Source: Ardenticatenaceae bacterium
GTDB lineage: Bacteria > Chloroflexota > Anaerolineae > Promineifilales > Promineifilaceae
Length of the DNA: 64,000 nt
Direction: 5' to 3'
NCBI GenBank assembly: GCA_020634315.1
Contig: JACKBV010000002.1
Location: 165,286 to 229,285 of the forward strand
Shown: piece by piece, positions 2,664 through 63,118 of the stretch
Layout of the letters: each line of letters starts with the position of its first letter
How positions within the stretch are numbered: the stretch's first letter is position 1
The notes under the pieces: generated by a model
The model's database searches: none
What the model saw: the letters and a program-made list of their open reading frames with translations, nothing else
Told to the model about the DNA's origin: nothing
Translations under genes and position numbers: made by a program

Positions 2664-5600
2664 TTGAATTTCACAACGCCATTGGCGCTGCTGCTCCTCT
2701 GTGTCATTCCTTACTTTTTCTGGTTAGGTCGGCCACGCACAACCATGCGGCGCTGGCGCGACTGGGTTAGTTTAGGGCTGCGCGTCCTAATCATTTTGCT
2801 GCTTACGCTCAGTTTAGCCGGCGCGCAAACTGTACGCGCCGCCGATGAATTGGCTGTCGTTTTTCTCGTCGATGCATCTGACTCCATCAACGCCGAACAG
2901 GCGGCACAAGCAGAAACCTTTGTGCGTGAAGCCATCGCCACGATGACGCCAAATGATCAAGCGGCGGTCATCTTGTTTGGCGCAAACGCCCTGGTTGAGC
3001 GCCCCATGAGCGGGCTGGCGGAATTAGCGCCCGTCACCTCTGTGCCCCAAGCTTTACACACCGATCTCGCCGAAGCCATTCGGCTGGGGATGGCTTTATT
3101 CCCGGCGGGAAGCGCCCGGCGCATGGTCATTCTCAGCGATGGCATGGCAACACTCGGCGATACAACCGCTGCCGCGCAATTAGCCGCCGCCAGCCAGGTA
3201 CAGGTTGATTTTGTGCATCTGTCACGCCAGGCGGGAGCCGTAGAAGCGTTACTGACGCGTGTCGATGCGCCGACGCGCGTCGTGCAGGGAGAAACCTTTC
3301 GCATTGATGTCACGGCCGAAAGCACAAGCGACATGCAGGCCAGTTTACGCGTCCTCGCTGGCGGCCAAATCGTTCACGAAGAGACGGTGGCGCTGCGTTC
3401 CGGCACAAACAACTTCACCATTCCCCTGCGGGCGACGGCACAAGAATTCGCCCGTTATCAAGTCCAACTGCTGCCAACGGCCGATACGTATTACCAAAAC
3501 AACGAACTGGCCGCTTTTACCGAAATTATGGGGCCGCCACGCATCCTGATTGTGGCTAATGATGGGACGACGGCCGACGATGGCACGCCCCTTCCTGATG
3601 AATCGCCCCAGTTGCGGTTGGCCTTGGAAGCCGCCGGATTGGAAGTTGACCAAACGACACCCGCTAAACTATCGGCGAATCTGGCAGAATTGAGCAATTA
3701 CGCCAGCATTGTGCTGGTAAATGTCAATGCCAAAAATTTGACGCCGCGCAAAATGGAAGCATTGCAAACATATGTGCGCGACTTGGGCGGCGGGCTGGTT
3801 GCCGTTGGCGGGCCAACGAGTTATGGCATGGGCGGTTATTTCCGCACCCCGCTTGAAGAGACATTGCCGGTAGACATGCAAATTAAGGATCAAGAGCGCT
3901 TCCCATCGGTGAGTATCGTCATTGTTATTGACCGGTCTGGCAGCATGGGCGCCACAGAAGGAGGCGTGACGAAGATTCAGTTAGCCGCCGAAGGGGCGAT
4001 ACGTGTCGTGGAATTGCTGAATGATTTTGACGAAATTACAGTCATTCCAGTTGACACAGCGCCGGATAATCCGATTGGGCCATTACCAGCCAGCGATAAG
4101 GAAACGGCCGTTGGCTTGATTCGCCAAATTGGCGCTGGGGGTGGCGGCATTTATGTGCGTACCGGGTTGGAAGCGGCCGCCGAGGCATTGGCGGGCAGTT
4201 CCAATCAGGTTAAGCACATCATTTTACTGGCAGATGGCTCGGATTCGGAACAAAAAGAGGGCGTGCCGGAATTGATTGCCGGATTGACGGCGGAAAATGT
4301 GACGATTTCTACGGTCAGCATTGGGCAAGGGCCGGATACGGTGTGGTTGCAGCAAATGGCAGAGTTGGGAAACGGCCGTTTTCACTTCACCGATCAGGCC
4401 GCCAACTTGCCGCAAATCTTCACACAGGAAACCACGTCCATCCAACGCAGTTATTTGGTTGAAGAGCGCTTTTTCCCCAGCCTGGGCAGCAGCAGCCCCA
4501 TTTTGGCAGGAATAACGGCCGTACCGCCGCTGTATGGGTATGTGGGAACCAGCCCAAAAGGGACGGCGCAAGTCATTTTGAAAACACACATGGATGATCC
4601 GCTGCTGGCCGCGTGGCAATATGGTTTGGGTCGCGCCGTAGCCTGGACATCGGATGCCACTGGCCGTTGGGCCACAGATTGGGTGCGTTGGGATGGATTC
4701 CCGGCATTTTGGGCGCAAACGGTGCGCTGGACGATTGCGCAGGGGTTAAACAGTAATGTGGAAACGGCCGTTACGCTGCAAGAAGAACAGGCTTCGTTAA
4801 CCGTCAACGTGCGCGGCAGCGACAACTCTTTTCTCAACAACCTGATCATGGAAGCCAATGTCGTTGCCCCCGATGGCGTCGTCACCAATCTCACCTTGTC
4901 GCAAACAGCGCCCGGACAATATGCTGGGGCATTTACACCGGAAACGGAAGGCGCATACTTGATTCGCGTGGCGGGCGGCAGTGCCGCTGAAGGGGATGAT
5001 ACGGCCGTTGCGCAAACAATGGGCTGGGTATTGGGCTACTCACCAGAGTACCAACAATTTGAGAGTGATCCGTTCTTGCTGACGACGCTCGCCGAGCTGA
5101 CAGAAGGGCGGGATTTGACGAGTGAAGCGGATGCGGTAACGGCCGTATTCGACCACACCCTCCCCAGCCAAACGGCAACACGCCCAATTTGGCCCTGGTT
5201 AACGCTAGCCGCTGTGGTGCTGCTCCCCTTCGACATTGCTACGCGCCGACTAGTCATTACGCGCCGCGATTGGCAGCGTGCCTGGGCAGCAACCTTTGGA
5301 CGATTACGGCCGCAGGTGGTGCAGCCCACCGCCAGACCAGAGCAAGTATCACGCCTCTTCCAGGCGAAAGAACGTGCCAGCACACAAAGCACAGCTGAAA
5401 CGACAAATCAACCAACATCGTCTGGCTCATCCACACCCGTTACACCAACACCTGCTGCACCGACCAACGCGCCAGCCCAACCAACGACACCCCCTCCCGC
5501 AAAACCATCACAGGCACCAACCACACCCCCATCTGGCACACTGGCGTCTCGTTTATTGGCGAAAAAACGAGACCAAGACGAGTCGCCTGACGCCAAATAA
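2664..5600 (+). CDS. Membrane-anchored protein with two von Willebrand factor A domains and a Pro/Thr-rich C-terminal tail (BatA/BatB-like)
   Basis: AAGGAG Shine-Dalgarno 12 nt upstream of TTG 2664. N-terminal TM. MIDAS-like DxSxS motifs VVFLVDASDSI and IVIVIDRSGSM. A C-terminal TM then a PTTPxP-rich tail. Confidence 0.75.
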   Translation: MNFTTPLALLLLCVIPYFFWLGRPRTTMRRWRDWVSLGLRVLIILLLTLSLAGAQTVRAADELAVVFLVDASDSINAEQAAQAETFVREAIATMTPNDQAAVILFGANALVERPMSGLAELAPVTSVPQALHTDLAEAIRLGMALFPAGSARRMVILSDGMATLGDTTAAAQLAAASQVQVDFVHLSRQAGAVEALLTRVDAPTRVVQGETFRIDVTAESTSDMQASLRVLAGGQIVHEETVALRSGTNNFTIPLRATAQEFARYQVQLLPTADTYYQNNELAAFTEIMGPPRILIVANDGTTADDGTPLPDESPQLRLALEAAGLEVDQTTPAKLSANLAELSNYASIVLVNVNAKNLTPRKMEALQTYVRDLGGGLVAVGGPTSYGMGGYFRTPLEETLPVDMQIKDQERFPSVSIVIVIDRSGSMGATEGGVTKIQLAAEGAIRVVELLNDFDEITVIPVDTAPDNPIGPLPASDKETAVGLIRQIGAGGGGIYVRTGLEAAAEALAGSSNQVKHIILLADGSDSEQKEGVPELIAGLTAENVTISTVSIGQGPDTVWLQQMAELGNGRFHFTDQAANLPQIFTQETTSIQRSYLVEERFFPSLGSSSPILAGITAVPPLYGYVGTSPKGTAQVILKTHMDDPLLAAWQYGLGRAVAWTSDATGRWATDWVRWDGFPAFWAQTVRWTIAQGLNSNVETAVTLQEEQASLTVNVRGSDNSFLNNLIMEANVVAPDGVVTNLTLSQTAPGQYAGAFTPETEGAYLIRVAGGSAAEGDDTAVAQTMGWVLGYSPEYQQFESDPFLLTTLAELTEGRDLTSEADAVTAVFDHTLPSQTATRPIWPWLTLAAVVLLPFDIATRRLVITRRDWQRAWAATFGRLRPQVVQPTARPEQVSRLFQAKERASTQSTAETTNQPTSSGSSTPVTPTPAAPTNAPAQPTTPPPAKPSQAPTTPPSGTLASRLLAKKRDQDESPDAK

Positions 5601-5850
5601 AGACGCCTCTACACCCCGCAAACTCCCTTCTCGCTGCCGTCAAATAGCAATCTCTTAAATAAACATCCTCTCTCTATGTAGGATGGTGTATAATGTGTGT
5701 ATAGTACAAAAGTCATACTAGAACACCCTGTGGCACCTGCAAAATAGAGGGCCAAATCACCAAAATTTAGTTCACTTTACAGTCTTAATATTAATTGAAA
5801 CCTTTCTCAGTTAACCTGAAAATCTTAGAAGTTAGGAAGGAGTACACAAA

Positions 5851-7506
5851 ATGAAAAAGGCGATTGTTTTGGCGATTCTGTTACTGGCATTAACGGCCGT
5901 CACAGGGTTCACCGTCACTGCATCACACACAATTCCTGTGATTGTCCAGGCAGAAAACGTAGAAACGGCCGTAACAGTGGCTCAGTCATATGGTGCGCAA
6001 GTACACGAGCAACTTGACATCATCAATGCTGTATCTGCTGATCTGCCACAGACGCAACTCGCGGCACTAAGCGCTGATTCGCGTGTTGTCCAGGTCATTG
6101 TTGACGATAAAGCCACCATTGCCAGTGGTGGTGGATTTGGAACCCCGCCCGATTCTTACTCTCCCGAAGTGATGGGAGTTGATCAGGTTTGGGACAGCGG
6201 CATTACTGGCAGCGGTGTCACCGTCGCCGTTATTGACACCGGCATCGCCTTTCACCCCAATGCATCCCAATACATCCTTGCCCGTTATGATGCACTCGAT
6301 AATGGCCCATTGCGCCCAGACCCACATGGTCATGGCACAATGATGACCAGCATCATTGGCAACCCCTCAGAAGACAGCGATGGATATTTGGGTGTAGCCC
6401 CCAACGTCAAATATGTCGATGTTCGCGTTCTGGATGAAAATGGCAGCGGCACATACACTGACATCATCGAAGGGCTAAACTGGGTTCTGGCAAACAAAGA
6501 CACCTATAACATCCGCGTCGCCAATCTTTCACTGGTTGCCAGCATTGAAGGCCCTTATTGGGATAACCCCATCAACCAAGCTGTAGAAGCTTTATGGGAT
6601 GCTGGTGTTGTGGTTGTCGCCGCGGCCGGTAATGGCGGGCCAAATGCCCTCACAATTGCCACGCCCGGCAACGATCCCTTTATCATCACAGTGGGAGCAT
6701 TCACCGACAACTATACGCCAGCAGATGAAAGTGACGATTACGTCACGCCATTTAGCGGCGCTGGCCCAACTGAATCCGGTTTCATTAAACCAGATGTCAT
6801 TGCACCAGGAGCACACATTATTACCATGGCTCGCCCCTCGGCAGCATGGCCGCAAGAACACCCAGACGCCCATCTATATGGCTATTACTACGAAATTGCC
6901 GGTACATCCGCCTCATCAGCAGCCGTAAGTGGTGTGGTAGCCCTCATGTTGCAAGCCAATCCTGACATGACGCCAAATCAGGTTAAATATGCACTGATGA
7001 CCTCTGCACGGCCGGCTACATATGCCGATGGAACATTAGCCTGGAGTGTTTACCAGCAAGGCACTGGGCGCGTTTGGGCACCAGCCGCCGTTCTGACTCC
7101 TCCTGCGGGTGAAGCCAATGGTAACATGGTTCCCGGTGAAGCCTATGTTGGCCCTGTTGTCTATCGTGATGGGCAATTCCGCCTGGTTGATGAAGTAGGC
7201 GAAACTATTCCAGACGCTGACAGCTATATCTGGGACGGTACATATGATTCTAGCGCCAGCGGCTATGCCTGGGTTGGCGGTTATGCCTGGGTTGGCGGCT
7301 ACGCCTGGGTTGGTGGTTATGCCTGGGTTGGCAGCTTTGACTGGATACCGTTAGAAACAGGCGATAACTGGCAAAGCGGTTATACTTGGGCAGGCGAGGA
7401 AGGCTGGGTTGGTGGCTACGCCTGGGTTGGTGGCTACGCCTGGGTTGGCGGCTACGCCTGGGTCGGTAATTACATCCTTCCGGCACTGCTTGACGCTAGC
7501 GAGTGA
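5851..7506 (+). CDS. Secreted subtilisin-like serine protease (peptidase S8) with a C-terminal GGYAWVG heptapeptide repeat region
   Basis: Signal peptide. Catalytic triad blocks VAVIDTGI (Asp), HGHGTMMTSIIG (His) and GTSASSAAVSGVVALM (Ser). GGAAGGAG Shine-Dalgarno before ATG 5851. Confidence 0.85.
   Translation: MKKAIVLAILLLALTAVTGFTVTASHTIPVIVQAENVETAVTVAQSYGAQVHEQLDIINAVSADLPQTQLAALSADSRVVQVIVDDKATIASGGGFGTPPDSYSPEVMGVDQVWDSGITGSGVTVAVIDTGIAFHPNASQYILARYDALDNGPLRPDPHGHGTMMTSIIGNPSEDSDGYLGVAPNVKYVDVRVLDENGSGTYTDIIEGLNWVLANKDTYNIRVANLSLVASIEGPYWDNPINQAVEALWDAGVVVVAAAGNGGPNALTIATPGNDPFIITVGAFTDNYTPADESDDYVTPFSGAGPTESGFIKPDVIAPGAHIITMARPSAAWPQEHPDAHLYGYYYEIAGTSASSAAVSGVVALMLQANPDMTPNQVKYALMTSARPATYADGTLAWSVYQQGTGRVWAPAAVLTPPAGEANGNMVPGEAYVGPVVYRDGQFRLVDEVGETIPDADSYIWDGTYDSSASGYAWVGGYAWVGGYAWVGGYAWVGSFDWIPLETGDNWQSGYTWAGEEGWVGGYAWVGGYAWVGGYAWVGNYILPALLDASE
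7255..7470 (+). repeat. Tandem 21-bp in-frame repeats (GGYTAYGCCTGGGTTGGYGGY; 4 + 3 copies) encoding (GYAWVGG)n within the S8 protease C-terminus
   Basis: Direct reading at 7261-7335 and 7409-7469. Protein reads GYAWVGGYAWVGGYAWVGGYAWVGS ... GWVGGYAWVGGYAWVGGYAWVGNY. Confidence 0.8.
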
Positions 7507-7734: not shown

Positions 7735-9240
7735 GTGCCTCCAGTGTCTCATTCTAACTCACCTGTCACCGCACGAAACATATATCTGACTGTTGTCAGT
7801 TTGTTTGGCATTGGCCTTGTTGTTTATGGCCTTATCTCATTACCCAGTTTCGAATCTCCAACTAACTTTCTATTATTGGTTCTGCTTGGCATTTCAGCTC
7901 AAATTACCTCAACGGTTCTTTCAGGTGGGGATATTGCTGTTGAAGTGAGTACGGCCGTTAGCATGGCGACCCTCTCCCTCTATGGGCGCGAAGCCGGGGT
8001 ATTGGTGGCGGCGTCCGCACTCATCACGCTTTCCGTGCTCAGCCTGCGGGCAAATTGGCCTGGATGGGCGCGTGCCGTCGAACGTATTGGCTTCAACATT
8101 GGCATGGGTACCATCTCCATCTTTTTGGCCGGAACCCTGTTTGACCTTCTCAACGCCTTAAACACACAGAATCTTGTGGTGCAAACCTTCATATCCTGGC
8201 TTAGCGCGGCCATTGTCAATGATCAGATTAACTTGTGGCTGCTGATTGCCCTGCTGCATCTGCAAAGCCAGGCCGATCCGCGTAAACTGTGGCACCAAAA
8301 CAAATGGGCGATCCCTATTAACGTGCTCGTTATGAGTGCGGGTGGCGGCGTCCTTGCTTTTGCCGTAGAACAATTTGACATCATTGGGATGGGCATCTTT
8401 TTTCTCCCCATTGTTTTGTCAGCATACGCTTTTCGTCTGTATGTCAACCAGACAAAACAGCAAATGGAACGGCTTGAAGAACTGGTGGCCGCACGGACAA
8501 ATGATTTGCGTGCGGCCAACGCAGAGTTGGCAGAACTCCACAAGACCAAGGATGCATATCTTGCCGTTTTAACGCATGATATGCGCACGCCATTAAGCAG
8601 CATCAAGGGATATGCTTCCGTTTTGAGTAAAGGGAATTTAGCCGAGGATCAACAAAGGCATATCGCTAAAATCCTTACGCGCAGCCAGGACTCTCTCATG
8701 GAAATTGTGAATAACATCCTTGAGATTGAAAATTTGCAATCTGGCACGCCCATAGAATTAGATCGCACTGATTTTGATCTGGCATATCTGATCGTTCTTG
8801 TCAGCGAAACGATTCAAGCGCAGGCACGGGAAAAGAATATTAGCTTGCAGTATGACGAGAATCCAACAGAAATCAATGTGAATGGCGACCGCGAAAAAAT
8901 AAAACGTGTGTTGACAAATCTCATTGCCAATGCGGTGAAATATACAGAAGAAAATGGCACCGTTACAGCGAAGGCTCGCGTAGAAGACGGGTATGCCGTT
9001 GTTGATGTTGTCGACACAGGCTATGGCATTCCTGCGGACGAATTACCGTATATTTTTGATCGGTTCCGCCGTGTCAAAGGGCATCGGCATATCGCTGTGG
9101 GAACAGGCTTGGGGCTGGCTATTGTGAAAAGCCTGGTTGAAGCGCATCAAGGCCAAATTTTAGTGACCAGTGAAGAAGGTGCTGGCAGCACCTTTACCAT
9201 GAAATTACCCCTACAAACAGATGATGCTCTGGTAGCATAA
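7735..9240 (+). CDS. Membrane sensor histidine kinase (HisKA + HATPase_c)
   Basis: LTHDMRTPLSSIKGYASVL H-box. NLIANAVKYT, DTGYGIP and GTGLGLAIVKSL ATPase boxes. Several N-terminal TM helices. The start is uncertain: the ORF is open from 7630, with an in-frame GTG at 7735. Confidence 0.7.
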   Translation: MPPVSHSNSPVTARNIYLTVVSLFGIGLVVYGLISLPSFESPTNFLLLVLLGISAQITSTVLSGGDIAVEVSTAVSMATLSLYGREAGVLVAASALITLSVLSLRANWPGWARAVERIGFNIGMGTISIFLAGTLFDLLNALNTQNLVVQTFISWLSAAIVNDQINLWLLIALLHLQSQADPRKLWHQNKWAIPINVLVMSAGGGVLAFAVEQFDIIGMGIFFLPIVLSAYAFRLYVNQTKQQMERLEELVAARTNDLRAANAELAELHKTKDAYLAVLTHDMRTPLSSIKGYASVLSKGNLAEDQQRHIAKILTRSQDSLMEIVNNILEIENLQSGTPIELDRTDFDLAYLIVLVSETIQAQAREKNISLQYDENPTEINVNGDREKIKRVLTNLIANAVKYTEENGTVTAKARVEDGYAVVDVVDTGYGIPADELPYIFDRFRRVKGHRHIAVGTGLGLAIVKSLVEAHQGQILVTSEEGAGSTFTMKLPLQTDDALVA

Positions 9241-9392: not shown

Positions 9393-10349
9393 TTATGCGG
9401 AGGCGATGAAGGAATATCCCACGGGGACATCTTCACGGGTGAAGGTGGCGGTTAGCCAGACGCGGCGAATGGTGAGGAGGGGGGAGATGGCGGCGTGTTC
9501 GTTGTCGGATAACGGCCGTTCCGAGTAATACCCCGCAAAAAACGCTTCCGTCAAGTCTTGCGAGACATTCAGCAAATCGGTGTTCTGCAAAAAGGCGGCA
9601 ATGTCATAGGCACGCCAACCGGGGCCACACAGGTCAAAGTTGAAGAACGTCAGGTTATCATCATCGCGGAAGAACGTATTGTTGCTGTGGAAATCGCCGC
9701 CAATTGGCCCCCAGCTATCTTCTGTGTAATAGGGGTTGCGGATAATCTCCAAAATTTCCTCTTTCGCTTCGGCGGCCGATGTCACAAGCAAGTCCAGGTC
9801 TCGCCGCCGTTCGGGACGATCTCCCCAAATGCGCTGCAAACGTGCCACCGGTCGATCTACGAGAAATTCCAGATTCATCTCTTGCCGCTTGTAATCGGTC
9901 TGGAAGTTGTTGGAGACCTTATGGATTTTTGCCATCGCCGCGCCCAGCGCATAGAGCTGGTTTTCATTGCGCGGATTCATTGGCTGTCCTTCGGCAAAGC
10001 TGAACAATGCATAGTAGCGTGTGCCTTCGGGAGCTTCGACTTTATTGAGGAAACGGCCGTCTGCGCGGCGAATAGGATACGACACCGGCAACCCCTGTTC
10101 ACGCAAAAAGTCGAGCCAGGCTAGTTCATACTCGTAATCAGATTCCTGCCGCAGCAAATGCGACCCTTCCTGATAAACACGCAGCGCGTATTTGCGGTCG
10201 CCAACCAGGACCCTGTAATGGTCATTGTCTTGAGTGCGCAGCATCTTGCTAAACAGGCGGCACTGAATTGGCTCCTTAAACTCATATTCTTGTGCAATCA
10301 ACTCTGCCAGCGCATCGCCAGCAATAAATGAACGTGTAATACGGATCAT
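9393..10349 (-). CDS. Phosphotransferase-family kinase (APH/ChoK/homoserine kinase II-like)
   Basis: Brenner-like motif GGDFHSNNTFF. Overall APH-fold pattern DxxxxN ... CGPGWRAYDIAAF. GGAGGA Shine-Dalgarno upstream. Co-directional with and 40 bp downstream of the LLM gene. Confidence 0.65.
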   Translation of the reverse strand: MIRITRSFIAGDALAELIAQEYEFKEPIQCRLFSKMLRTQDNDHYRVLVGDRKYALRVYQEGSHLLRQESDYEYELAWLDFLREQGLPVSYPIRRADGRFLNKVEAPEGTRYYALFSFAEGQPMNPRNENQLYALGAAMAKIHKVSNNFQTDYKRQEMNLEFLVDRPVARLQRIWGDRPERRRDLDLLVTSAAEAKEEILEIIRNPYYTEDSWGPIGGDFHSNNTFFRDDDNLTFFNFDLCGPGWRAYDIAAFLQNTDLLNVSQDLTEAFFAGYYSERPLSDNEHAAISPLLTIRRVWLTATFTREDVPVGYSFIASA

Positions 10350-10388: not shown

Positions 10389-11405
10389 TCATGAATTAAA
10401 CCCGGCGACAGATGCAGCCCAACCCGCATCATCTTCACCAGGAATAAAGGGCAAATAGTAACTGACGCGATCCAGCAAATTGCCATATTTTGCTTGAATC
10501 TTAGCGGGCAGTTCTGCCCAGGTGCCGCTGACAGCACACGCATCAAGCACATCATCGCCTATTAAATCTGCCATTTGCGTCCATGCCCCAGCACGGGCCA
10601 ACTGCCCTAACTGCCGAGACAAATCACCCCAGCCGTGTAATTCTAGCACGACTTTGTAAGCGGGTGTACTCATATAAAAAGCGAGCTGCTGCCGCACAAA
10701 GGCTTCAACTTCGGCCGCCGGGCGGATGCCATCGGTGGGAATGGCAAAGATGCCGGCCGAAAGGGTGAAATTGGAACGAGAACGGCCGTTTCTCGCCCAC
10801 CCCTTCTCCAATTCCGGCAGCGCAAACTCCTGCAAATACGTCACCGTATGCACCGGATGAATGTGTACACCGTCGCAATGCGTGCCCGCCAGCCGCAGCA
10901 TTTGTTCATTAACGGCCGCAATATAAATAGGAATCTCCGGATAATCGTGTGGGCCAGGATCAAAAAACGGGGTCATCAATTGCAGCTTAAAAAATTCGCC
11001 CACATAATCCAATGGCTTGCCCTGCTGCCAACAATCCCAACAAGCGTGAATGGCCTCAATCGTCTCGCGCATCTTCTTGATCGGCTTCTCCCATTTCACA
11101 CCAAAGCGCAGCACGTTATGGGCTTTTACCTGCGTCCCCAGGCCAAGAATGAAACGCCCCTGGCTGTACTGTGCCAACTGCCAGGCAATGTAGGCGGTGA
11201 GGGTAGGACTGCGCGGAAAGGCCACGGCAACGGCCGTTCCCACATTCATGCGCTTGCTGTGTTCCGCCGCCAACGTCAACCCCAAAAAAGGATCGCCCTG
11301 CGTCTCCGCCAGCCAACAGCCAGCAAAGCCCAACGCTTCTGCCGCCTGCGCATAAGCCGCCATCTGCCCCAAGTCAAAACTCAACAAGGTCACATCAAAT
11401 TCCAT
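10389..11405 (-). CDS. LLM-class (luciferase-like) F420/flavin-dependent oxidoreductase
   Basis: MEFDVTLLSFDLGQMAAYAQAAEALGFAGCWLAETQGDPF ... GRFILGLGTQV is typical of the TIM-barrel LLM family. GGAGG Shine-Dalgarno 7 nt before ATG at 11405. The ORF-track start at 11675 adds about 90 non-homologous aa. Confidence 0.75.
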   Translation of the reverse strand: MEFDVTLLSFDLGQMAAYAQAAEALGFAGCWLAETQGDPFLGLTLAAEHSKRMNVGTAVAVAFPRSPTLTAYIAWQLAQYSQGRFILGLGTQVKAHNVLRFGVKWEKPIKKMRETIEAIHACWDCWQQGKPLDYVGEFFKLQLMTPFFDPGPHDYPEIPIYIAAVNEQMLRLAGTHCDGVHIHPVHTVTYLQEFALPELEKGWARNGRSRSNFTLSAGIFAIPTDGIRPAAEVEAFVRQQLAFYMSTPAYKVVLELHGWGDLSRQLGQLARAGAWTQMADLIGDDVLDACAVSGTWAELPAKIQAKYGNLLDRVSYYLPFIPGEDDAGWAASVAGFNS

Positions 11406-12147: not shown

Positions 12148-12160
12148 ATTAACGGCCGTT

Positions 12161-12652
12161 ATGAACGACCCCCTCCACAGCACACTGCCCATCAAACAAT
12201 TCCTGCTTATCGAAACCTGCCCGACAGCATGGCGACCGTTAGATTTGTACTTGTTTCGCGATGAAGCGGTTGTTTTTTATGTGGGGCAATCACATCTGGC
12301 TTTTGACCGTGTCTGGGAACATATTCGCTATGGGTTCAAAGGGCGCTCAACGGTTGGCCGTTTCATTTTGTGCAACTGGCCGACTTCGATGAAGTTTACA
12401 GTTGAACTGCTCAGTTCGCGTGCTGACCAGTTTGCCTCTGTGGCGCATGACCTGGATGCGGCCGAACGCCAGCTCATCACACAGTATGCCCCTTGCTTCA
12501 ACGATGTTTGGAATGAGCAGCCAACCCCATTGCCGGAGAAGTATGTACCGGAAACGGCCGTTCCCCGCTGCTCCCGTAACCTCAAAAAGCTGATCCGCGA
12601 AGCCGAATACGCCTGCAAAATGGATGCACGCCGGGCGTGGCTCTCATCTTAA
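12161..12652 (+). CDS. Small GIY-YIG nuclease-superfamily protein
   Basis: LYLF ... FYVGQS ... DRVWEH ... ELLS ... QYAPCFN matches the GIY / YIG / Arg / Glu / Asn order of GIY-YIG domains. Confidence 0.5.
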   Translation: MNDPLHSTLPIKQFLLIETCPTAWRPLDLYLFRDEAVVFYVGQSHLAFDRVWEHIRYGFKGRSTVGRFILCNWPTSMKFTVELLSSRADQFASVAHDLDAAERQLITQYAPCFNDVWNEQPTPLPEKYVPETAVPRCSRNLKKLIREAEYACKMDARRAWLSS

Positions 12653-20710: not shown

Positions 20711-20904
20711 ATGGGGCAGGTGTCGCCCAATGCGTTACCTCCAATGAGACGGTACGCCGCTGTTCGCTGTGCGGCCAACCACAGACGGACTGGGCTGGTA
20801 ACGGCCGTTCACGCACCTTCACTCTTACGTACAAAAAGGGAGGAAACGGCCGTAACTCTGCACCACAGATTAAGAGCAGCCTATGAAAAATCGTATTTAC
20901 TGAA

Positions 20905-55709: not shown

Positions 55710-56882
55710 TCAGCGATCTTGCCCAATGACATCCAGTTCACCTTGATAATAGGCAATTGCCTGCTCATTTGCCGTCGTTTGCGCCAATGATAATGCCTGT
55801 TGTAAATCGGCATGGGCACGCTGCATCTGCCTCTGCTGCCGGGAAACCTGGCTGTGCAGATGATATAAACGCGCCAATTGCAGTGGATCGCTTTCTGGCT
55901 CGGTTTGGGTGAGGGCAATGGCCTGACTAATATGGCTGTCGGCTTCCTCTAAATGACTGATATCGAGGTTGTATTTGCCCAATAACTGATGGGCAAAGGC
56001 GGCGCTGATGTTATTGGGCAAGCCAAGGCTAAGTGCCTGTCGCGTGTGCTCAATGGCACGCAATGGGACTTGCCGTTTGCCTTCGCTGAGCAGAAGTGCC
56101 ATTTCCAGATGCGCAGAGCCGGAATCGGGCATTGTGCGCAGTAGTTGTGCAAGCTGGTATTTGGCTTTGTTGACGGCACCGCCACGGCGCAGGGCATCAA
56201 TGTAACGAATTTGGGTTTGGGTATCGAGGGTATCGCGGGCGGACGCGGCCAGTGCGTGAAAAGCGTCTTGATAGGCGAGCGAATCATGGGCCAACATCTC
56301 AAACCAGCCGCGCCGGTCGCCTTGCCAAAAGAGGAAGAGGAGGGCGATATGAAAAACGGCCGTTACGCCACTCCACAACGGTGTTGCCCCAAAATCATAA
56401 ATCATTCTCCAGTCACCCTCGAAGCCGAGTAAGGTGAAAACTGGATAATAGATGAGGGAAAAGTAGACCTGGAAACGAAAAGCGCGTAAGCCGAAGTAAC
56501 GCAAGGCAGAGTAACGATGATGGCGCAAAAGCAGCCATACGGTCAGGCCAAAAAGGAGGGAACCCAGCGTTCCGGCCAGGCTGATAAACCAATATTGGAA
56601 CGGGGTGAACTGCCCGGAAGGAATGATGTAGCCCCAAAAGGCGCGGTAGGCAAATTCGACGACCTGGCCGCCAGAGGCCCAGGTAGCCAGTGAATGTGAA
56701 AATTCATGAAAAAAGACGCCGATGGGGACAGCAATGAAGAATGAGGCTTGTTCAGCCAACTGTTTTTTGTGACGGGTGAGAGGTTCTTGCGTGATGCCTT
56801 GCCATTCGCGCCAGATAACGGCCGTTAATTGCAGGCTGCGAAAAATATAAAACAGGGAAAGAATATTAGAAATTGCCGACAT
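55710..56882 (-). CDS. Membrane protein with an intramembrane HExxH motif (HEFSH) fused to C-terminal TPR repeats; putative zinc metalloprotease/regulator
   Basis: 4-5 N-terminal TM helices containing FFHEFSHSLATW. TPR-like repeats in the C-terminal half. Confidence 0.55.
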   Translation of the reverse strand: MSAISNILSLFYIFRSLQLTAVIWREWQGITQEPLTRHKKQLAEQASFFIAVPIGVFFHEFSHSLATWASGGQVVEFAYRAFWGYIIPSGQFTPFQYWFISLAGTLGSLLFGLTVWLLLRHHRYSALRYFGLRAFRFQVYFSLIYYPVFTLLGFEGDWRMIYDFGATPLWSGVTAVFHIALLFLFWQGDRRGWFEMLAHDSLAYQDAFHALAASARDTLDTQTQIRYIDALRRGGAVNKAKYQLAQLLRTMPDSGSAHLEMALLLSEGKRQVPLRAIEHTRQALSLGLPNNISAAFAHQLLGKYNLDISHLEEADSHISQAIALTQTEPESDPLQLARLYHLHSQVSRQQRQMQRAHADLQQALSLAQTTANEQAIAYYQGELDVIGQDR

Positions 56883-57129: not shown

Positions 57130-58872
57130 GTGACAAGCAAACTCGAATTTCTGGAACAGGTACCGATTTTTGCAACGTTGACTGACGATGAGTTAACGGC
57201 ATTGGCGGGCATTGCCCGTGAGTATGAGTTTGAAGACGGGGCCGTCATCGCTTATCAGCGCGATGTGGGCAACAGTCTGTATATTGTGAAAAACGGCCGT
57301 TTATTTGCTCATACCGTCGATGCGCAGGGCATTGTGCGCAGTTCGCGCTCTTTTCTGCCCGGCGACTATTTTGGCGAGTCGTGGCTGTTTGCTCCCAATG
57401 CACACCCGGCAACAATTAGAGGCAAAGGAAACGGCCGTATTCTGGTCATCCAGGGCAACGAATTCCTGCAATTTCTCGATGCCTACGGCAACGTGCTCGA
57501 AAACCTGGAACCCGTCTACGATCAAAGCGGCACCATCGTCTCTGGCCTATCAGAGACAGCCTGGGAAGAAGCAACAAAAATTCGCTTAAAAGCCCATCGA
57601 CGCAGCGCCGCCGTCAGCTTGCTGCCCGACGAGCTGGTCGAATTCCAGACCTATCGCAGCCGCTGGTATTTGCTGCTGCGCCTGGTTGGGCCGCTGGTCA
57701 TGTTGTTCATTACCTTGATTGGCACGTTTGTTTTGCTGCCGCTGCGACCTGCTGAGGGATTTTTACGGGGGACGCTAACGGCCGTTCCCATCATCTTCGG
57801 CCTCATCTCCCTCGCCTGGCTCGGCTTCAACTACCTGGACTGGCAAAACGATTACTTCGTCATCACCAACAAACACCTCATCCACCGCGAATTCGATCTG
57901 CGCAAATTCAGCACCAACGTCATCAAAATCCCCATTGACCAGATTCAAAGCGTGGAGATTTCCAAACCCAACCTCCTCTCCAATCTATTCAACTTTGGCA
58001 CAGCCCGCGTCACAACAGCCGCCCAGGCCGGAATTGTCTACTTCGACAATATCGATGCGCCCACCATGGTTAGAGATACCCTAAATCGGCTCAGCCAACG
58101 CGTGAAAACATTAGATGCAGGCCGTGAACAAGCGATTATGCGTGAATCCCTGGAAAGCCATTTCCAGGCAGACCATCCCCTAAGCGCTGTCACCGACGAC
58201 AACCTCGCCCCTATCGCCGCGCCTAAACAAACCGGCTTATTCACACGGTATCAATGGCGTCTCGAAGAAGGAGACACCATCACATATCGCAAACACATCT
58301 TCGTGCTGCTGCGCGAATCTGCCTGGCCGGGCGGCATAGTGCTTGGCTTGATTGTGCTCTATCTGCTGCTCACACGCTTCTTCAACTTCACCTTTAGCCA
58401 GTTGTGGATCATATTCTCCCTATTTTTCCTGGTTGACCTGGGCTGGCTCATCTGGAAAGTGGAAGATTGGCGCAACGACATCTTCCAGGTCACAAGTCGG
58501 GTGATCATCGACATTGACCGCCGCCCCTTTGGTTTTGGCGAAAGCCGCAAGCAAGCTCCCTTAGGCAATATTCAGAATGTGAGCGCCGACCGCCCCGGAA
58601 TCTTGCAGACCCTCTTCAATTTTGGTAACGTTTTTGTAGAGACGGCAGGTGTTGATGCCAATATCACATTTGAGGATGTGCCCAACCCCAGCCAAATTCA
58701 AAGCGACATTTTCAAGCGGTTGGATGAAGTGCGGCAGGCGCAGCGCGTCAAAGAAGGAGCACAGCGGCGTAAAGAGTATGCTGTGTTACTCGATGTCTAC
58801 AAACAGGCTCTGGAACAGGGACGAATTCCACAGCGCACCCCGCCACCCAACGAGTTTGGTTACGAAAATTAA
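57130..58872 (+). CDS. Membrane protein with an N-terminal cyclic-nucleotide-binding domain followed by two bPH_2 (YdbT/DUF304-like, membrane-flanked PH) domains
   Basis: GGGAAGG then GTG 57127/57130. cNMP-binding: LEQVPIFATLTDDELTALAGIA ... GDYFGESWLF. Two TM pairs, each followed by WQNDYFVITNKHLI ... / WRNDIFQVTSRVII ... blocks. The ORF-track N-terminus (from 56956) is the polypurine tract translated. Confidence 0.6.
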   Translation: MTSKLEFLEQVPIFATLTDDELTALAGIAREYEFEDGAVIAYQRDVGNSLYIVKNGRLFAHTVDAQGIVRSSRSFLPGDYFGESWLFAPNAHPATIRGKGNGRILVIQGNEFLQFLDAYGNVLENLEPVYDQSGTIVSGLSETAWEEATKIRLKAHRRSAAVSLLPDELVEFQTYRSRWYLLLRLVGPLVMLFITLIGTFVLLPLRPAEGFLRGTLTAVPIIFGLISLAWLGFNYLDWQNDYFVITNKHLIHREFDLRKFSTNVIKIPIDQIQSVEISKPNLLSNLFNFGTARVTTAAQAGIVYFDNIDAPTMVRDTLNRLSQRVKTLDAGREQAIMRESLESHFQADHPLSAVTDDNLAPIAAPKQTGLFTRYQWRLEEGDTITYRKHIFVLLRESAWPGGIVLGLIVLYLLLTRFFNFTFSQLWIIFSLFFLVDLGWLIWKVEDWRNDIFQVTSRVIIDIDRRPFGFGESRKQAPLGNIQNVSADRPGILQTLFNFGNVFVETAGVDANITFEDVPNPSQIQSDIFKRLDEVRQAQRVKEGAQRRKEYAVLLDVYKQALEQGRIPQRTPPPNEFGYEN

Positions 58873-58874
58873 TT

Positions 58875-59444
58875 ATGGCTATTTTAGAGATTGTGAAACT
58901 GCCGGAAGCGATTTTGCGGCAAAAGACGCACCCTGTCACAAAATTTGACAGTGAATTGCAGAAATTGATTGATGACATGATTGAAACCATGCGCGAAGCG
59001 CCCGGTGTTGGTCTTGCTGCGCCCCAAATAGGCAAGCCGATTAGCTTGACCGTCATTGAGACATTGCCACAAGTGGACGACGATGGCAACGAGATTGAGG
59101 GGACGCGTGACTTGTATGTGCTGGTGAACCCGGAAATCATCTGGAGCTCGCGCGAGTTAACTGACGGCATCGAAGGCTGCCTCTCGATTCCGGGTTATTT
59201 GGGCGAGGTGGAACGGCATGAGTCAATTCGGGTACGCGCACAGGATCGATACGGCCGTAAAGTGCGTTATCGTGTCCATGATTGGGATGCCCGCATTTTT
59301 CAGCACGAAATCGACCATCTGAATGGCGTGCTGTACATCGATAAACTAACGGCTCCGGAAAATTTCTGGACAGAAGAAGAGTTCCGCGTCAAGTATTATG
59401 GGGATGATGAAACAGAATACATCGAACCCACAGTTGGTGATTAA
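58875..59444 (+). CDS. def: Peptide deformylase
   Basis: GVGLAAPQIG, EGCLSIPG and HEIDHLNG are the three PDF motifs. Confidence 0.9.
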   Translation: MAILEIVKLPEAILRQKTHPVTKFDSELQKLIDDMIETMREAPGVGLAAPQIGKPISLTVIETLPQVDDDGNEIEGTRDLYVLVNPEIIWSSRELTDGIEGCLSIPGYLGEVERHESIRVRAQDRYGRKVRYRVHDWDARIFQHEIDHLNGVLYIDKLTAPENFWTEEEFRVKYYGDDETEYIEPTVGD

Positions 59445-59446: not shown

Positions 59447-59740
59447 ATGGCCCTGACACAAAAAGATGTAGAACACATTGCCCATCTGGCGCGGTTGCAG
59501 TTGACGCCCGCCGAGAAAGAGATGTACCGGGAGCAGTTAACGGCCGTTCTCGATTATGCGGCTATGCTCAATGAACTAGACCTGGACGGCATCCCGCCCA
59601 CCGCCCACGCGGTCGCCCAGCAAAACATCTTGCGCGACGACGTAATCGAACCGTCGCTGCCGCTAGAAGACGTTCTCTACAACGCACCACAGCAGCAAGA
59701 CGATCAATTCCTCATTCAAACAGTGCTTGACGAAGCCTGA
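59447..59740 (+). CDS. gatC: Glu-tRNA(Gln)/Asp-tRNA(Asn) amidotransferase subunit C
   Basis: LTQKDVEHIAHLARLQLTPAEKEMYREQLTAVLDYAAMLNELD is the canonical GatC. Confidence 0.85.
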   Translation: MALTQKDVEHIAHLARLQLTPAEKEMYREQLTAVLDYAAMLNELDLDGIPPTAHAVAQQNILRDDVIEPSLPLEDVLYNAPQQQDDQFLIQTVLDEA

Positions 59741-59958: not shown

Positions 59959-61482
59959 ATGAATTGGAAAACGATGTTGAAATTCCCCTTGCTGGCAACA
60001 CTCCTGCTCGCTTTCTTCCTGATTGCTGGCGCTGCATCTACCCATGCAGCCAGTCCAGGCGCAGCTTTGGTGCAATTGGATGTGACGGGTCTGGAAGATT
60101 TGGGGCCGGGTTGGGCTTATGAGGGTTGGGTTATCGTTGATGGCAATCCGCTCAGCACCGGCGTGTTTACGGTTGATGGCACAGGCAATGCTTCAGTCCG
60201 TAACTTTGCCGTCAACGCCAATCCACAAGATGTATCTGCTTTTGTCCTGACGATCGAGCCATCTCCTGATCCCGACCCTGCCCCCAGCAACACGCATTTA
60301 CTCGGCGGCGACTTTAACGGCCGTTTCGCGCATCTAACCGTCGGCCATCACACCGCCCTGGGAAACGATTTTCTTGATGCCAATGGCAGTTTCATCCTCG
60401 CCGTGCCCTCGGATAGCAGCGGCAACACCCCATACACCCATGGCATTTGGTGGTTGAACCCCGCCGGGCCGACATCGAGTTTGGATTTACCCACATTGCC
60501 AGCGGGTTGGGCTTATGAAGGTTGGGTAGTTGGTGCCAATGGCCCCATTTCGACTGGCGTCTTCACCGATCTTGCCATGGCAGACAGCGATGCAGGTGGC
60601 CCTTACGCTGGCCCAGACAACACACCCTCCTTCCCCGGTCAGGATTTTGTCAATCCCCCTATGGATTTGACCGGTTTAACGGCCGTTATCTCCATCGAAC
60701 CATCGCCCGACAACAGTCCCGCCCCCTTCACACTCAAACCCCTCATTGACGGCCACATCGACGACTTAGGCGCACCCGGTCTGGCACAAGAAATGGACAA
60801 CAATGCTGCCGGATTCCCTTCCGGCACGGCAAAATTGCTGCCCGCACAGCGGTATCAAGTCACCTTCACAAACCTGACTGCTGGACAGCCACTTTCCCCC
60901 GCCGTTGTCGCGACCCATCGCGCCGGATTAGGCATGTTCAATGGCAACCAATATGCGCTGCCAGCACTGGAAGCGATTGCCGAAGATGGCGATGAAAGCA
61001 GCATGGCTGCGTTGTTAAACAGCTTGCCCCAGGTTTCCCAGGTTGTGCAGGTCGGCGCACCGCTGACACCACAAGGGATCACGGTTGGCGATTTCAGCAG
61101 CAGCGCCACCTTTGAAATTATCGCTCGCCCCGGTGACCGCATCTCCCTGGCTTCTATGCTCATTTGCACCAATGATGGCTTCACCGCACTGGGCAGCGCA
61201 TCGCTGCCACAGCATGGTAGTCACGATTACTGGCTCTATGGATATGATGCAGGCACGGAAGATAACACAGAATTGAGCGGCGATTTGCCTGACCCATGCA
61301 GCGCTCTTGGCCCGGTTGTGCTCAATGGCGATGCGAATGGAAATGAGAATACGGCCGTTGACACGCAACCGCACCAATCCATCCAACTCCATCCCGGCAT
61401 TCAAGGCAATGGCGCTCTGCTTCCCGCCCACAATTGGGACGGGGCTGTCGCCAAAGTAACCATCACCAGACTCGACAACTAA
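59959..61482 (+). CDS. Secreted protein with two N-terminal RskA-C-terminal/DUF-like repeats and a C-terminal spondin_N-like domain
   Basis: Signal peptide. Duplicated block GWAYEGWV(I/V) ... P(L/I)STGVFT ... (V/A)(L/I)(T/S)IEPSPD. C-terminus QRYQVTFTNLTAGQPLSP ... MLICTNDGFTAL resembles spondin_N. Confidence 0.5.
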   Translation: MNWKTMLKFPLLATLLLAFFLIAGAASTHAASPGAALVQLDVTGLEDLGPGWAYEGWVIVDGNPLSTGVFTVDGTGNASVRNFAVNANPQDVSAFVLTIEPSPDPDPAPSNTHLLGGDFNGRFAHLTVGHHTALGNDFLDANGSFILAVPSDSSGNTPYTHGIWWLNPAGPTSSLDLPTLPAGWAYEGWVVGANGPISTGVFTDLAMADSDAGGPYAGPDNTPSFPGQDFVNPPMDLTGLTAVISIEPSPDNSPAPFTLKPLIDGHIDDLGAPGLAQEMDNNAAGFPSGTAKLLPAQRYQVTFTNLTAGQPLSPAVVATHRAGLGMFNGNQYALPALEAIAEDGDESSMAALLNSLPQVSQVVQVGAPLTPQGITVGDFSSSATFEIIARPGDRISLASMLICTNDGFTALGSASLPQHGSHDYWLYGYDAGTEDNTELSGDLPDPCSALGPVVLNGDANGNENTAVDTQPHQSIQLHPGIQGNGALLPAHNWDGAVAKVTITRLDN

Positions 61483-61548: not shown

Positions 61549-61630
61549 GTATTGATGGGCAGCGGGCTGCTATTGCCTATTGCCCCTTTCCTAACGATAA
61601 TAAGCCAGAGAATAAACCGGATAGACAAAG

Positions 61631-63087
61631 ATGGAACAGAAGATGGACCTAACCAACCTTACCTTAACCGAACTTCGCGCCGCCCTACGCCAGGGGGAAA
61701 CCAACAGCGTTGCCGCCACACAAGCCATGCTGGATCGCATTGTTGCCCAAGATAACGAGATTCAAAGTTACCTGACCATCACCGATGAACTGGCACTGGA
61801 ACAGGCCGCCGCCGCCGACCAACGGCTGGCCGCTGGCGATGCGTCGCCATTGCTGGGCGTGCCCATTGCCGTCAAAGACATCATCAGCGTACAAGGCGTT
61901 CCCAATACGGCCGGCAGCAAAATTCTAGAGGGCTTCATTCCCCCTACGACGCGTTTGTTGTGCAAAAACTGAAGGAAGCGGGCGCGGTCATTCTTGGCAA
62001 AACGAACACCGATGAATTTGCCATGGGGTCATCGACAGAAAATTCTGCCTACGTCACGACGCGCAATCCCTGGGATTTAGAGCGCGTGCCCGGCGGCAGC
62101 AGTGGGGGCAGCGCCGCCGCCGTCGCCGCCAATATGGCTTATGCCGCTTTGGGCACCGATACCGGTGGCAGTGTACGGCAGCCCGCCTCGTTTTGTGGCG
62201 TAGTGGGCTTGCGTCCCACATACGGCCGTATCTCTCGTTGGGGTGTGGTTGCCTTTGCTTCGTCATTGGATCAGGTGGGCACATTCGGCCGTACCGTCGC
62301 CGACACCACCGCCCTTTTCCAGGCCATCGCCGGATATGATCGCCGCGACAGCACCTCGCTGGATGTGCCTGTGCCCGATTATGAAGCCGCCTTGACGGGC
62401 GACATCAAAGGGTTGAAGGTGGGTGTGCCTGCCGAATATTTTATTGAAGGGATTGAGCCGGATGTGGAAACGGCCGTACGCGCCGCCATCGCCAAACTGG
62501 AAGAGTTAGGCGCAGAAATCCACGAAATCAACCTGCCACATACGCGTTATGCCCTGCCCGTCTACTACCTCATCGCGCCTGCCGAAGCAAGCGCCAACCT
62601 GGGGCGTTACGATGGCATCCGCTACGGGCCGCGCCTGCCCGGCAGCGACATGATTGACACGGTGAAAAAGACGCGCTCCCTCTTTGGCCCGGAAGTGAAG
62701 CGGCGCATTATGCTGGGGACTTATGCACTCAGTGCCGGGTATTATGATGAATATTACGGCCGTGCCCTCAAAGTGCGCACCCTCATCAAGCAAGACTTCC
62801 AAACCGCCTTTGCGCAAGTCGATGTGATCGCCTGTCCCACCAGCCCCACCACCGCCTTCAAAATTGGCGACCGCACCGACGACCCGTTGAGCATGTACCT
62901 GGCCGACATTTTTACGCTGCCGCTCAACCTCAGCGCAAGCTGCGGCCTGAATGTGCCTTGTGGCTTTGACAGCAAGGGTTTGCCAATTGGCTTGCAGCTT
63001 ATCGGCAACACGCTGCAAGAGGCAATGATTTTGAACACGGCTTATGCGTATGAGCAGGCGATGGATTGGGGTGGGAAACGGCCGTAA
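61631..63087 (+). pseudogene. gatA: Glu-tRNA(Gln) amidotransferase subunit A interrupted by a -1 frameshift in a C5 homopolymer (61940-61944). Alternatively a homopolymer sequencing error.
   Basis: The two ORFs (61631-61972 and 61960-63087) join into a colinear amidase-signature GatA (... [11 protein letters not shown] / [21 protein letters not shown] ... [13 protein letters not shown] ...) if one C is added. The gene reads IPPYDAF only with 6 C. Confidence 0.8.
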
Positions 63088-63118
63088 TCCAACCAAAAAA
63101 TCCTAAACTCGTGTCAAC

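Follow-up and report, generated by a model that had tools for sequence, protein, structure and literature searches.

The stretch of DNA considered here comprises 64,000 nucleotides from an Ardenticatenaceae bacterium (contig JACKBV010000002.1 of assembly GCA_020634315.1, positions 165,286 to 229,285; hereafter the window) and is ordinary chromosomal DNA. Its genes encode sensor kinases, a subtilase, an alpha-2-macroglobulin, a class A penicillin-binding protein (PBP), PdxS/PdxT, propionyl-CoA carboxylase subunits, a polyketide synthase (PKS), an ABC transporter, a deformylase and an amidase. Several of these labels (alpha-2-macroglobulin, class A PBP, PKS and kinases) had been assigned in an earlier reading of the bare sequence (hereafter the original prediction), and Pfam agrees with them. 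Scattered through these genes is the 8-bp palindrome ACGGCCGT, which is a highly iterated palindrome (HIP) of the class known from cyanobacteria, here found in Chloroflexota (Promineifilales/Ardenticatenaceae). Three features of that class were tested and found in ACGGCCGT: hyper-abundance, spread by substitution in all contexts, and excess conservation. The core and the phylum are new; the HIP class itself is already known from cyanobacteria.

Exact matches to ACGGCCGT number 100 in the window, a density of 1.56 per kb. One hundred dinucleotide-preserving shuffles of the window gave a mean of 1.40 (standard deviation 1.01, maximum 5), which places the octamer ~70-fold above chance in this genome, and a third-order Markov model predicted 2.9, a figure itself raised by the tetramers of ACGGCCGT. 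The runner-up palindromic octamers reach 5 copies each, and the cyanobacterial HIP1 (GCGATCGC) occurs at most three times and is not among the frequent palindromes. The original prediction, made by eye, gave about 95-100 copies and a 50-100-fold excess over an expectation of one or two, and both estimates agree with the exact figures; the comparison with other palindromic octamers and a third-order Markov expectation, which it had proposed, bears them out for the window. It was less accurate about the edges. Of the copies, 98 lie inside the range it gave (4100-63090), whereas two more lie upstream in a region of 4 kb it had described as empty. Both are in a GAF histidine kinase gene on the + strand and are read as Arg-Pro (xRPx), at 1543-1550 and 2008-2015†, where † marks, here and below, a copy that lies within the extended form AACGGCCGTT. 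This form occurs 59 times in the window, as the original prediction's mention of extended forms would suggest; the 10-mer and 14-mer extensions are however a property of the lineage and not of the whole element.

The copies are spread over both strands and all three reading frames and yield recurrent peptides, as had been predicted. They are divided almost evenly between genes of the + strand (48) and of the - strand (47), and the 95 genic copies are read as ACG-GCC-GTn (Thr-Ala-Val, TAV; 59), nAC-GGC-CGT (x-Gly-Arg, xGR; 26) or nnA-CGG-CCG-Tnn (Arg-Pro, xRPx; 10). In the first-pass set of open reading frames (ORFs), 32 of 43 carry at least one copy and belong to unrelated families, so that the copies are not confined to one repeated gene family. 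In a stricter gene set 95 of the 100 copies lie inside genes, and the remaining five are close to the number predicted from a non-coding share near 7%. These five are found between called genes at 20801-20808†, 20846-20853 and 29325-29332, between divergent genes at 31081-31088†, and at 13371-13378†. The last of these was thought to overlap the start of an a/b hydrolase gene (-), and it in fact lies between called genes, 1 base upstream of the hydrolase ATG at 13369.

Relatives of the source organism were found through the carboxyltransferase of the window and were reduced to one genome per species (n = 80; chromosomal loci, ~1.3 Mb); most are metagenome bins. In 23 of the 80 species ACGGCCGT is present at 0.8-2.6 per kb, over a G+C range of 0.48-0.61, in 53 it falls below 0.25 per kb and in 4 it is intermediate. 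Pooled motif-rich relatives contain 1.88 copies per kb within ORFs and 1.47 per kb outside them, and the position of copies along genes is uniform. The motif-rich genomes form four or five groups intermixed with motif-poor ones, although the single-protein tree on which this rests is weak evidence. A Promineifilum-like clade of high G+C (loci L009, L015, L017, L024, L027, L032, L035, L054, L074 and L075) has a faint version, with 0.05-0.42 copies per kb, 56% of Thr-Ala-Val motif-coded and a 2-fold enrichment of the tripeptide, which resembles a weak form or an early stage more than it does decay. With one exception the record titles of the relatives are Chloroflexota (Anaerolineae or Ardenticatenia, Promineifilaceae, Ardenticatenaceae, Ca. 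Leptofilum, Ca. Leptovillus). The exception, L025 (CAYTME010000040.1), is titled "uncultured Pleurocapsa sp.", a cyanobacterium; its carboxyltransferase groups with those of Chloroflexota, and the bin is probably mislabelled or mixed.

Could such a pattern arise with no DNA element at all, from a preference for certain codons or peptides, from a single gene family, from insertion of a mobile repeat or from faulty assembly? Most copies are genic and 59 of 95 read Thr-Ala-Val, as a preference of this kind would have it. However, the octamer uses three frames, both strands and non-coding DNA, lies in those 32 ORFs of unrelated families, shows no insertions or deletions at its sites, and recurs in dozens of independent assemblies, one of them a complete long-read chromosome. 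The frames, strands, intergenic copies and unrelated genes together exclude a peptide motif, preferred codons, a single gene family and an inserted repeat, and an explanation of this type is hardly credible. REP and MITE repeats differ in the same respects, as they are imperfect palindromes longer than 20 bp inserted mainly between genes, whereas ACGGCCGT measures 8-10 bp with its lineage extension, is genic in 95 of 100 cases and brings no indels.

The effect of the octamer on codons and proteins is large. Thr-Ala-Val is spelled as ACGGCCGT in 58 of 60 instances in the window (97%), in 94% at other motif-rich loci and in 19% in motif-poor relatives; the figure predicted from codon usage is ~15%. 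Likewise [NDHY]-Gly-Arg is motif-coded in 25 of 31 instances in the window (81%), in 86% at other motif-rich loci and in 1% in motif-poor relatives. The tripeptide itself is 6-9 times commoner in motif-rich genomes than in relatives without the motif: Thr-Ala-Val occurs 31-32 times per 10,000 amino acids in the former and 3.5 times in the latter, with 5 predicted from amino-acid composition, and proteins have therefore been altered to accommodate ACGGCCGT. The carboxyltransferase (-) shows how copies arise. Here the octamer sits on an invariant NGR (37613-37620 in the window; site kept in 23 of 24 motif-rich genomes) and an invariant DGR (36983-36990; 20 of 24), and motif-poor carboxyltransferases have the same residues with different codons, unchanged length and no indels at the sites. 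Replacement of codons at the same length indicates that copies arise by point substitution. ACGGCCGT is a signal in double-stranded DNA that is created wherever the protein tolerates Thr-Ala-Val, x-Gly-Arg or Arg-Pro; it occupies nearly every tolerated position, has altered the proteome and, once in place, differs little from one species to the next.

What is the extent of the recognised unit? Pooled motif-rich DNA contains 932 exact copies, compared with ~370 for all 24 one-base variants together. With motif-poor relatives of matched G+C as the reference, CGGCCG and GGCC show neither excess nor avoidance outside the octamer, so the unit is the complete 8-mer; the hexamer CGGCCG was considered as the true unit and rejected on the same grounds. 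Other octamers with a CGGCCG core are at most 2-4-fold enriched, and this in a few neighbouring lineages only. In the lineage of the window the signal reaches further, as frame-0 copies take GTT as their Val codon in 86% of cases (21% for other Val codons) and are preceded by a codon ending in A in 83% (16% overall). Flanking synonymous positions in another motif-rich clade are only mildly biased. The core is thus a constant 8-mer, which this lineage extends to a 10-mer.

Within the core lie CGGCCG and GGCC, sites often targeted by cytosine methyltransferases, and very-short-patch (VSP) repair in E. coli restores T:G mismatches to C:G at CCWGG. The octamer could on that basis be a side effect of a cytosine-5 methyltransferase together with Vsr-type VSP repair acting from T:G to C:G, an idea that the presence of these targets in the core favours. 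The Dcm/Vsr situation, in which only the C-to-T one-off variants are depleted, is not what is seen. Internal one-off variants of ACGGCCGT are about equally rare, C-to-T variants show no special depletion, and synonymous transversion variants are removed as thoroughly as C-to-T ones, which makes Vsr-type repair unlikely; the 35-70-fold excess also lies far above the small effects known for VSP repair. Taken together these points leave the explanation very improbable. A deamination or VSP signature was also sought directly among changed sites in close pairs and was rejected, as there was neither special loss nor special excess of C-to-T one-offs in the small number of events available (29).

Once present, the sites persist. 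Across 15 genome pairs at 77-91% DNA identity, 87.4% of ACGGCCGT sites were identical in the partner compared with 35.3% of other octamers, and one-base variants were found in the partner at 3.1% of ACGGCCGT sites but at 31.8% of control octamers. This answers in the affirmative the question of conservation among relatives that the original prediction had raised. Where the 24 flanking bases were at least 83-92% identical, 95-97% of ACGGCCGT sites were unchanged compared with 43-50% of controls. A few alignments had hinted at clustered changes before flank conservation was controlled; short templated "patch" conversion as a source of copies was considered and rejected, as with flanks controlled the changed sites carried no extra multi-base changes relative to control octamers.

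The octamer is not restricted to chromosomes. Viral contigs searched with GAAACGGCCGTTTC yielded 113 loci, ~40 of which carry ACGGCCGT at 0.8-3.7 per kb, and a scan of metagenomes gave 43 motif-rich loci among the 120 matches listed. One motif-rich viral contig encodes a portal protein, a large terminase and two or more DNA methyltransferases; its terminase gene contains two copies of ACGGCCGT, and the motif codes for each of the 18 Thr-Ala-Val tripeptides of the contig. Phages chosen by terminase similarity alone contain 0.6-2.8 copies per kb at 58% terminase identity or more and 0-0.2 per kb at 47% or less. A prophage with an integrase and terminases has 2.3 copies per kb, and the host locus of the same assembly (L046) has 2.41. 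Two plasmid-like contigs bearing ParA reach 3.7 and 6.2 per kb, densities biased upwards by the use of the motif to pick these contigs. The denser of the two, a small contig (L312:1-3254), holds 20 copies in 3.25 kb, 5 of which lie in an intergenic region of ~400 bp (2128-2532) beside parA. Phages full of ACGGCCGT make a restriction enzyme that cuts it unlikely, and the restriction link suggested in the original prediction is not supported.

Might the octamer be a binding site? A role in chromosome structure was proposed for HIP1 (Xu et al., 2018; PMC5861425), and ACGGCCGT could similarly bind an abundant chromosome-organising or nucleoid protein and be kept by selection for chromosome structure. 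Its sites are strongly conserved, and a palindromic recognition sequence of 8-10 bp suits a dimeric DNA-binding protein. Spacing is slightly more even than random (coefficient of variation, CV, 0.89 in the window and 0.82 across pooled motif-rich loci), with very short and very long gaps both under-represented. The longest gap in the window is 3,044 bp, which matches random placement of 100 sites, and long ACGGCCGT-free stretches were accordingly rejected as candidates for foreign DNA. However, unrelated phages and plasmid-like contigs carry the octamer at equal or higher density, and near-full saturation of compatible codons would be hard to reach through per-site selection on ~10,000 sites. 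We consider a nucleoid-protein role improbable.

A classical DNA uptake signal would be recognised by a surface competence receptor and amplified only by biased uptake and recombination, as for the uptake signal sequences (USS) of Pasteurellaceae and the DNA uptake sequences (DUS) of Neisseriaceae. The density of ~1-2 per kb, the use of tolerated frames and the distortion of the proteome resemble those of USS and DUS, ACGGCCGT is common to many species of one clade, and a 2026 preprint proposes a role of this kind for HIP1. USS and DUS also resemble it in recurring ~1 per kb in related species and in lending themselves to an explanation by molecular drive. Nevertheless they are asymmetric 9-12-mers serving a competence receptor, whereas ACGGCCGT and its extensions are perfect palindromes, and it is about as dense as in the hosts in phages whose terminases are unrelated, although phages do not enter through uptake machinery. 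No competence genes were found among the annotated genes in Pfam scans of the 64-kb window. An uptake signal in this strict sense is doubtful, to about the same degree as a nucleoid role.

A link to a methyltransferase specific for CGGCCG or GGCC formed part of the original prediction and is not supported. No DNA methyltransferase was detected in the window or in the ~1.3 Mb of 80 related chromosomal loci by tblastn with an M.HaeIII probe and by motif patterns, and CGGCCG and GGCC occur at normal levels outside the octamer. Motif-rich metagenome loci gave a single weak PF01555 match. A candidate comes from phages. A beta-class PF01555 enzyme with a TSPPY motif, named by JGI as N4-cytosine-specific, recurs in motif-rich phage contigs, and a protein search showed its family to be discrete, with 76 clusters that all score E <= 5e-36 and none between there and the 1e-20 cut-off. 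All nine contexts examined are phage or prophage DNA with ACGGCCGT at 0.6-2.8 per kb, although members range from 100% down to 34% identity to the query and the large terminases of four of the phages are essentially unrelated. Two other methyltransferase families of the same phages have relatives in motif-poor phages. Across the PF01555 family Thr-Ala-Val occurs 24 times per 10,000 residues, and comparison with solved structures finds generic similarity only, to beta-class N6/N4 enzymes (RsrI, CcrM and N4-cytosine enzymes). Judged from sequence, the family is associated with ACGGCCGT, and the link is one of association only. Several DNA methyltransferases are encoded on each of the motif-rich phage contigs L169 (93-998 and 9695-10948) and L345-L347, of the types D12 N6-adenine, PF01555 N4/N6, C5 (PF00145) and Dam, which suggests heavy host restriction pressure or a need for several marks.

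The likeness to HIP1 proposed in the original prediction holds for abundance, for use of frames and non-coding DNA, for the absence of insertions, for conservation and for confinement to one clade; the methyltransferase/restriction link is not supported. Both are exact G+C-rich 8-bp palindromes with a CG-NN-CG core, present in tens- to hundreds-fold excess at ~1 per 0.4-1.2 kb, and both occupy coding DNA in all frames as well as non-coding DNA and spread by substitution. They differ in that HIP1 has a CGATCG core containing GATC and belongs to Cyanobacteria, whereas ACGGCCGT has a CGGCCG core without GATC and belongs to Chloroflexota. The methyltransferases DmtC and DmtA are known for HIP1, in contrast to the candidate phage-borne PF01555 family for ACGGCCGT. 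For ACGGCCGT it is also shown here that phages and plasmid-like DNA carry it about as densely as the hosts do and that one tripeptide is in 6-9-fold excess. Members of the HIP class contain the target of a resident, usually orphan, methyltransferase and are methylated in vivo, whereas ACGGCCGT is a putative methylation site; they are also distributed quasi-periodically with a period of 10-90 kb, whereas ACGGCCGT was followed over 64 kb and for short-range spacing only. In the literature surveyed, whose coverage did not extend to subscription journals, no paper names ACGGCCGT or AACGGCCGTT as an iterated element and none links HIP terms to Chloroflexota, in agreement with the original prediction, which knew of no description of this core as a HIP.

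In a few cyanobacteria other palindromes (for example GGGATCCC, TCGATCGA and CAGGCCTG) take the HIP role in particular lineages, and something similar may occur among the relatives of the window, with TGCCGGCA in L061 and more weakly CCGGCCGG in L040 and L043. These alternate cyanobacterial HIPs are moderately enriched, remain within Cyanobacteria and are tied to predicted cognate methyltransferases. ACGGCCGT, by contrast, is as strong as HIP1 itself and occurs in many genera of another phylum. Locus L061:1-6147, a Promineifilaceae contig with a G+C of 0.70, has no ACGGCCGT and has 7 copies of TGCCGGCA in 6.1 kb where 0.3 are expected, so that TGCCGGCA may be the alternate iterated palindrome of a neighbouring lineage. 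Enrichment of CCGGCCGG is mild (21 copies against 5.5 expected in L040:1-21548; 11 against 4.6 in L043:1-15035), and GCGGCCGC is ~2-fold enriched in L015, L017 and L035. These are palindromes with a CGGCCG core in motif-poor neighbours; the enrichments are weak and G+C-rich composition may contribute.

Other short signals offer partial parallels. Chi, the signal read by RecBCD/AddAB, is a short "self" sequence that alters the processing of linear DNA; it is however asymmetric, replication-oriented and several-fold rarer, and the palindromic ACGGCCGT cannot carry orientation. Dam GATC is a short methylated palindrome distributed along the genome that could guide repair, and is the basis of Elhai's ratchet, but it has 4 bp and is only mildly over-represented. 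We know of no MutH-like nickase for HIPs or for this clade.

How, then, might the octamer have reached saturation? The explanation towards which we lean, tentatively and with slightly less than even confidence, is that a probably methylated ACGGCCGT marks DNA as "self" and that DNA so marked is favoured in entry, repair or recombination, so that its carriers spread. A dimeric protein would read the full 8 bp, in this lineage together with the flanking A and T, and a cognate DNA methyltransferase would most likely mark the octamer. Marked DNA would fare better on uptake, repair or recombination, as with a Chi-like or uptake-like "self" mark, and alleles and mobile elements carrying it would be passed on preferentially. 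Such molecular drive through recombination would explain both the saturation and the conservation of ACGGCCGT. Such a favoured "self" mark is in keeping with what phages and plasmids show, with the methyltransferase family that phages carry and with recent transformation experiments on HIP1. In those experiments methylated HIP1, acting in a Chi-like way, raises transformation both with integrating and with replicating DNA (bioRxiv 10.1101/2024.09.10.611283; 10.64898/2026.06.24.733823), a Chi-like effect having been proposed in the first of these reports. In a bolder form, the methylated octamer would be a "password" of Promineifilales and related Chloroflexota, evolved independently of HIP1 and favoured by the machinery of DNA entry and recombination, for which the chromosome would have been rewritten down to its amino-acid sequences and which phages and plasmids would have to carry, many with their own dedicated N4/N6 methyltransferase. 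We regard this version as rather unlikely in full.

The main rival to a "self" mark is Elhai's ratchet, with the nucleoid-protein role and the classical uptake signal less likely. The ratchet would make the octamer a by-product of methylation-directed mismatch repair, in which an orphan methyltransferase marks the site, the intact methylated strand serves as the template, a mismatch in a near-site is corrected in favour of the motif and the octamer needs no function beyond this. Several observations are in keeping with it: all synonymous variants are removed regardless of substitution type, one-base variants are found ten times less often than with control octamers, phage DNA replicating in the cell would be exposed to the same repair, and the Promineifilum-like clade would represent a weak version (56% motif-coded TAV and 2-fold enrichment). 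The density of ~1-2.6 per kb is also close to the set point of ~1 per kb argued for such a process (PMC4390886). Against this, the ratchet needs a nickase that reads the methylated site, what has been amplified is the 8-mer (in this lineage the 10-mer) and not CGGCCG as such, and a methyltransferase family common to unrelated phages suggests that mobile DNA gains from the mark. To our knowledge no nickase reading a methylated HIP site is known here or in cyanobacteria. Neutral repair bias has been argued to be insufficient for HIP1 (Xu et al., 2018; PMC5861425). On balance the ratchet is somewhat unlikely as the whole explanation.

Several points weigh against a "self" mark as the favoured account. 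Purely repair-based drive would equally explain the saturation, the conservation and the presence in phages, and the link between the PF01555 family and the motif could simply reflect shared host range. Methylation of ACGGCCGT is itself only inferred, and neither a reader protein nor a host methyltransferase, competence gene or nuclease has been identified. Spacing is barely more regular than random (CV 0.82-0.89). The underlying data also have weaknesses, in that genes were called crudely from ORFs, the tree was built on one protein, the overlapping genome pairs do not count as independent comparisons, and the viral and metagenome loci were retrieved with a 14-mer and are biased to high density.

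For some three decades HIP1 has lacked an explanation and has been regarded as a cyanobacterial peculiarity; a second, equally strong element shows the phenomenon to be general. It also provides an independent comparison, as a gene family that tracks both HIP1 and ACGGCCGT would be a strong candidate for the machinery. Any mechanism is now constrained by compatible codons that are nearly filled, by the 6-9-fold excess of the tripeptide, and by unrelated mobile elements that carry the octamer at host-like or higher density and among which one methyltransferase family is found exclusively. ACGGCCGT can in addition serve as an easy marker when contigs of these abundant filaments of wastewater and sediment are binned and when phages are matched to their hosts, and it may be needed for transforming these Chloroflexota.

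The genic copies remaining to be located, all exact matches with the strand of the gene in brackets, are given here by peptide reading. Copies read as Arg-Pro (xRPx) lie, beyond the two in the GAF histidine kinase gene, in the genes for an APH-type kinase (-) at 9512-9519†, the a/b hydrolase (-) at 13084-13091, a 220-aa ORF (-) at 13956-13963 and a 160-aa ORF (-) at 27664-27671† (aa, amino acids), the PKS (-) at 40582-40589† and 45982-45989, an ABC ATPase (-) at 52893-52900 and the amidase (+) at 63078-63085.

Those read as x-Gly-Arg, in addition to the two carboxyltransferase sites, begin with a VWA protein (+) at 4372-4379†, the APH-type kinase (-) at 10053-10060, a luciferase-like monooxygenase (-) at 10782-10789† and a 158-aa ORF (-) at 14244-14251† and 14634-14641. 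They continue in the alpha-2-macroglobulin (+) at 17436-17443†, 17802-17809 and 20151-20158, an aminotransferase (-) at 22075-22082, the class A PBP (+) at 24704-24711†, a PAS histidine kinase (+) at 25855-25862† and 26632-26639, a UDG-family gene (-) at 30484-30491†, the biotin carrier (-) at 34583-34590 and the PKS (-) at 43004-43011†, 43616-43623† and 44570-44577. Further along they are found in an acyl-CoA dehydrogenase (-) at 48000-48007, a His phosphatase (-) at 49470-49477, a cNMP-binding protein (+) at 57293-57300† and 57431-57438, the deformylase (+) at 59251-59258, an RskA-like anti-sigma protein (+) at 60317-60324† and the amidase (+) at 62222-62229 and 62756-62763.

Thr-Ala-Val is the reading of the copies in the VWA protein (+) at 4104-4111†, 4515-4522, 4764-4771†, 5001-5008 and 5139-5146, in the subtilase (+) at 5893-5900 and 5965-5972, in a histidine kinase (+) at 7951-7958, in the luciferase-like monooxygenase (-) at 11230-11237†, and in ORFs of 138 aa (-) at 12152-12159† and 163 aa (+) at 12554-12561†. 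The alpha-2-macroglobulin gene (+) has such copies at 14972-14979†, 15038-15045†, 15593-15600†, 15920-15927†, 16484-16491†, 17021-17028, 18023-18030†, 18797-18804, 18992-18999† and 19736-19743†, the class A PBP gene (+) at 22549-22556†, 25087-25094† and 25402-25409†, the PAS histidine kinase gene (+) at 26208-26215 and PdxT (-) at 26881-26888. They recur in a beta-lactamase/SH3 gene (+) at 32978-32985† and 33941-33948†, the biotin carrier (-) at 34317-34324† and 34677-34684†, the biotin carboxylase (-) at 35473-35480† and 36163-36170, and a PPTase (-) at 38112-38119. The PKS gene (-) contributes 39078-39085†, 39423-39430†, 40197-40204†, 40686-40693†, 41604-41611†, 41898-41905, 41955-41962†, 42201-42208†, 43905-43912†, 44433-44440, 45153-45160†, 46071-46078 and 46419-46426†. 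The series is completed by the His phosphatase (-) at 49810-49817†, the ABC ATPase (-) at 52316-52323†, 52460-52467†, 53204-53211† and 53312-53319†, an M50B peptidase (-) at 56356-56363† and 56818-56825†, the cNMP-binding protein (+) at 57778-57785†, a 97-aa ORF (+) at 59540-59547†, the RskA-like anti-sigma protein (+) at 60679-60686† and 61351-61358, and the amidase (+) at 62470-62477.

Some further features of the window deserve mention. An ORF of 551 aa at 31173-32828 has neither a Pfam match nor a copy of ACGGCCGT; the motif-free stretch of 1.9 kb around it is not unusual by chance at 1.6 copies per kb. The gene for a UDG-superfamily glycosylase (30349-31035, -) lies near one for a small-molecule-type S-adenosylmethionine (SAM) methyltransferase (29340-30107, -), the two being separated by a small ORF, and the window holds no evidence tying either gene to the palindrome.

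Frequent octamers of other kinds were also encountered. Non-palindromic examples are CCAATCTC, with 18-35 copies in L063 and L078, GATTGGTA with 14 in L072 and CAACCAAC with 16 in L069, and L074 has a long C run; all of these are probably local tandem or dispersed repeats. An unrelated viral contig with a G+C of 0.40 (L209:1-7385) contains TATCGATA 8 times in 7.4 kb, and L212 contains it 4 times; TATCGATA may be a further iterated palindrome that belongs to another system of phage and host.

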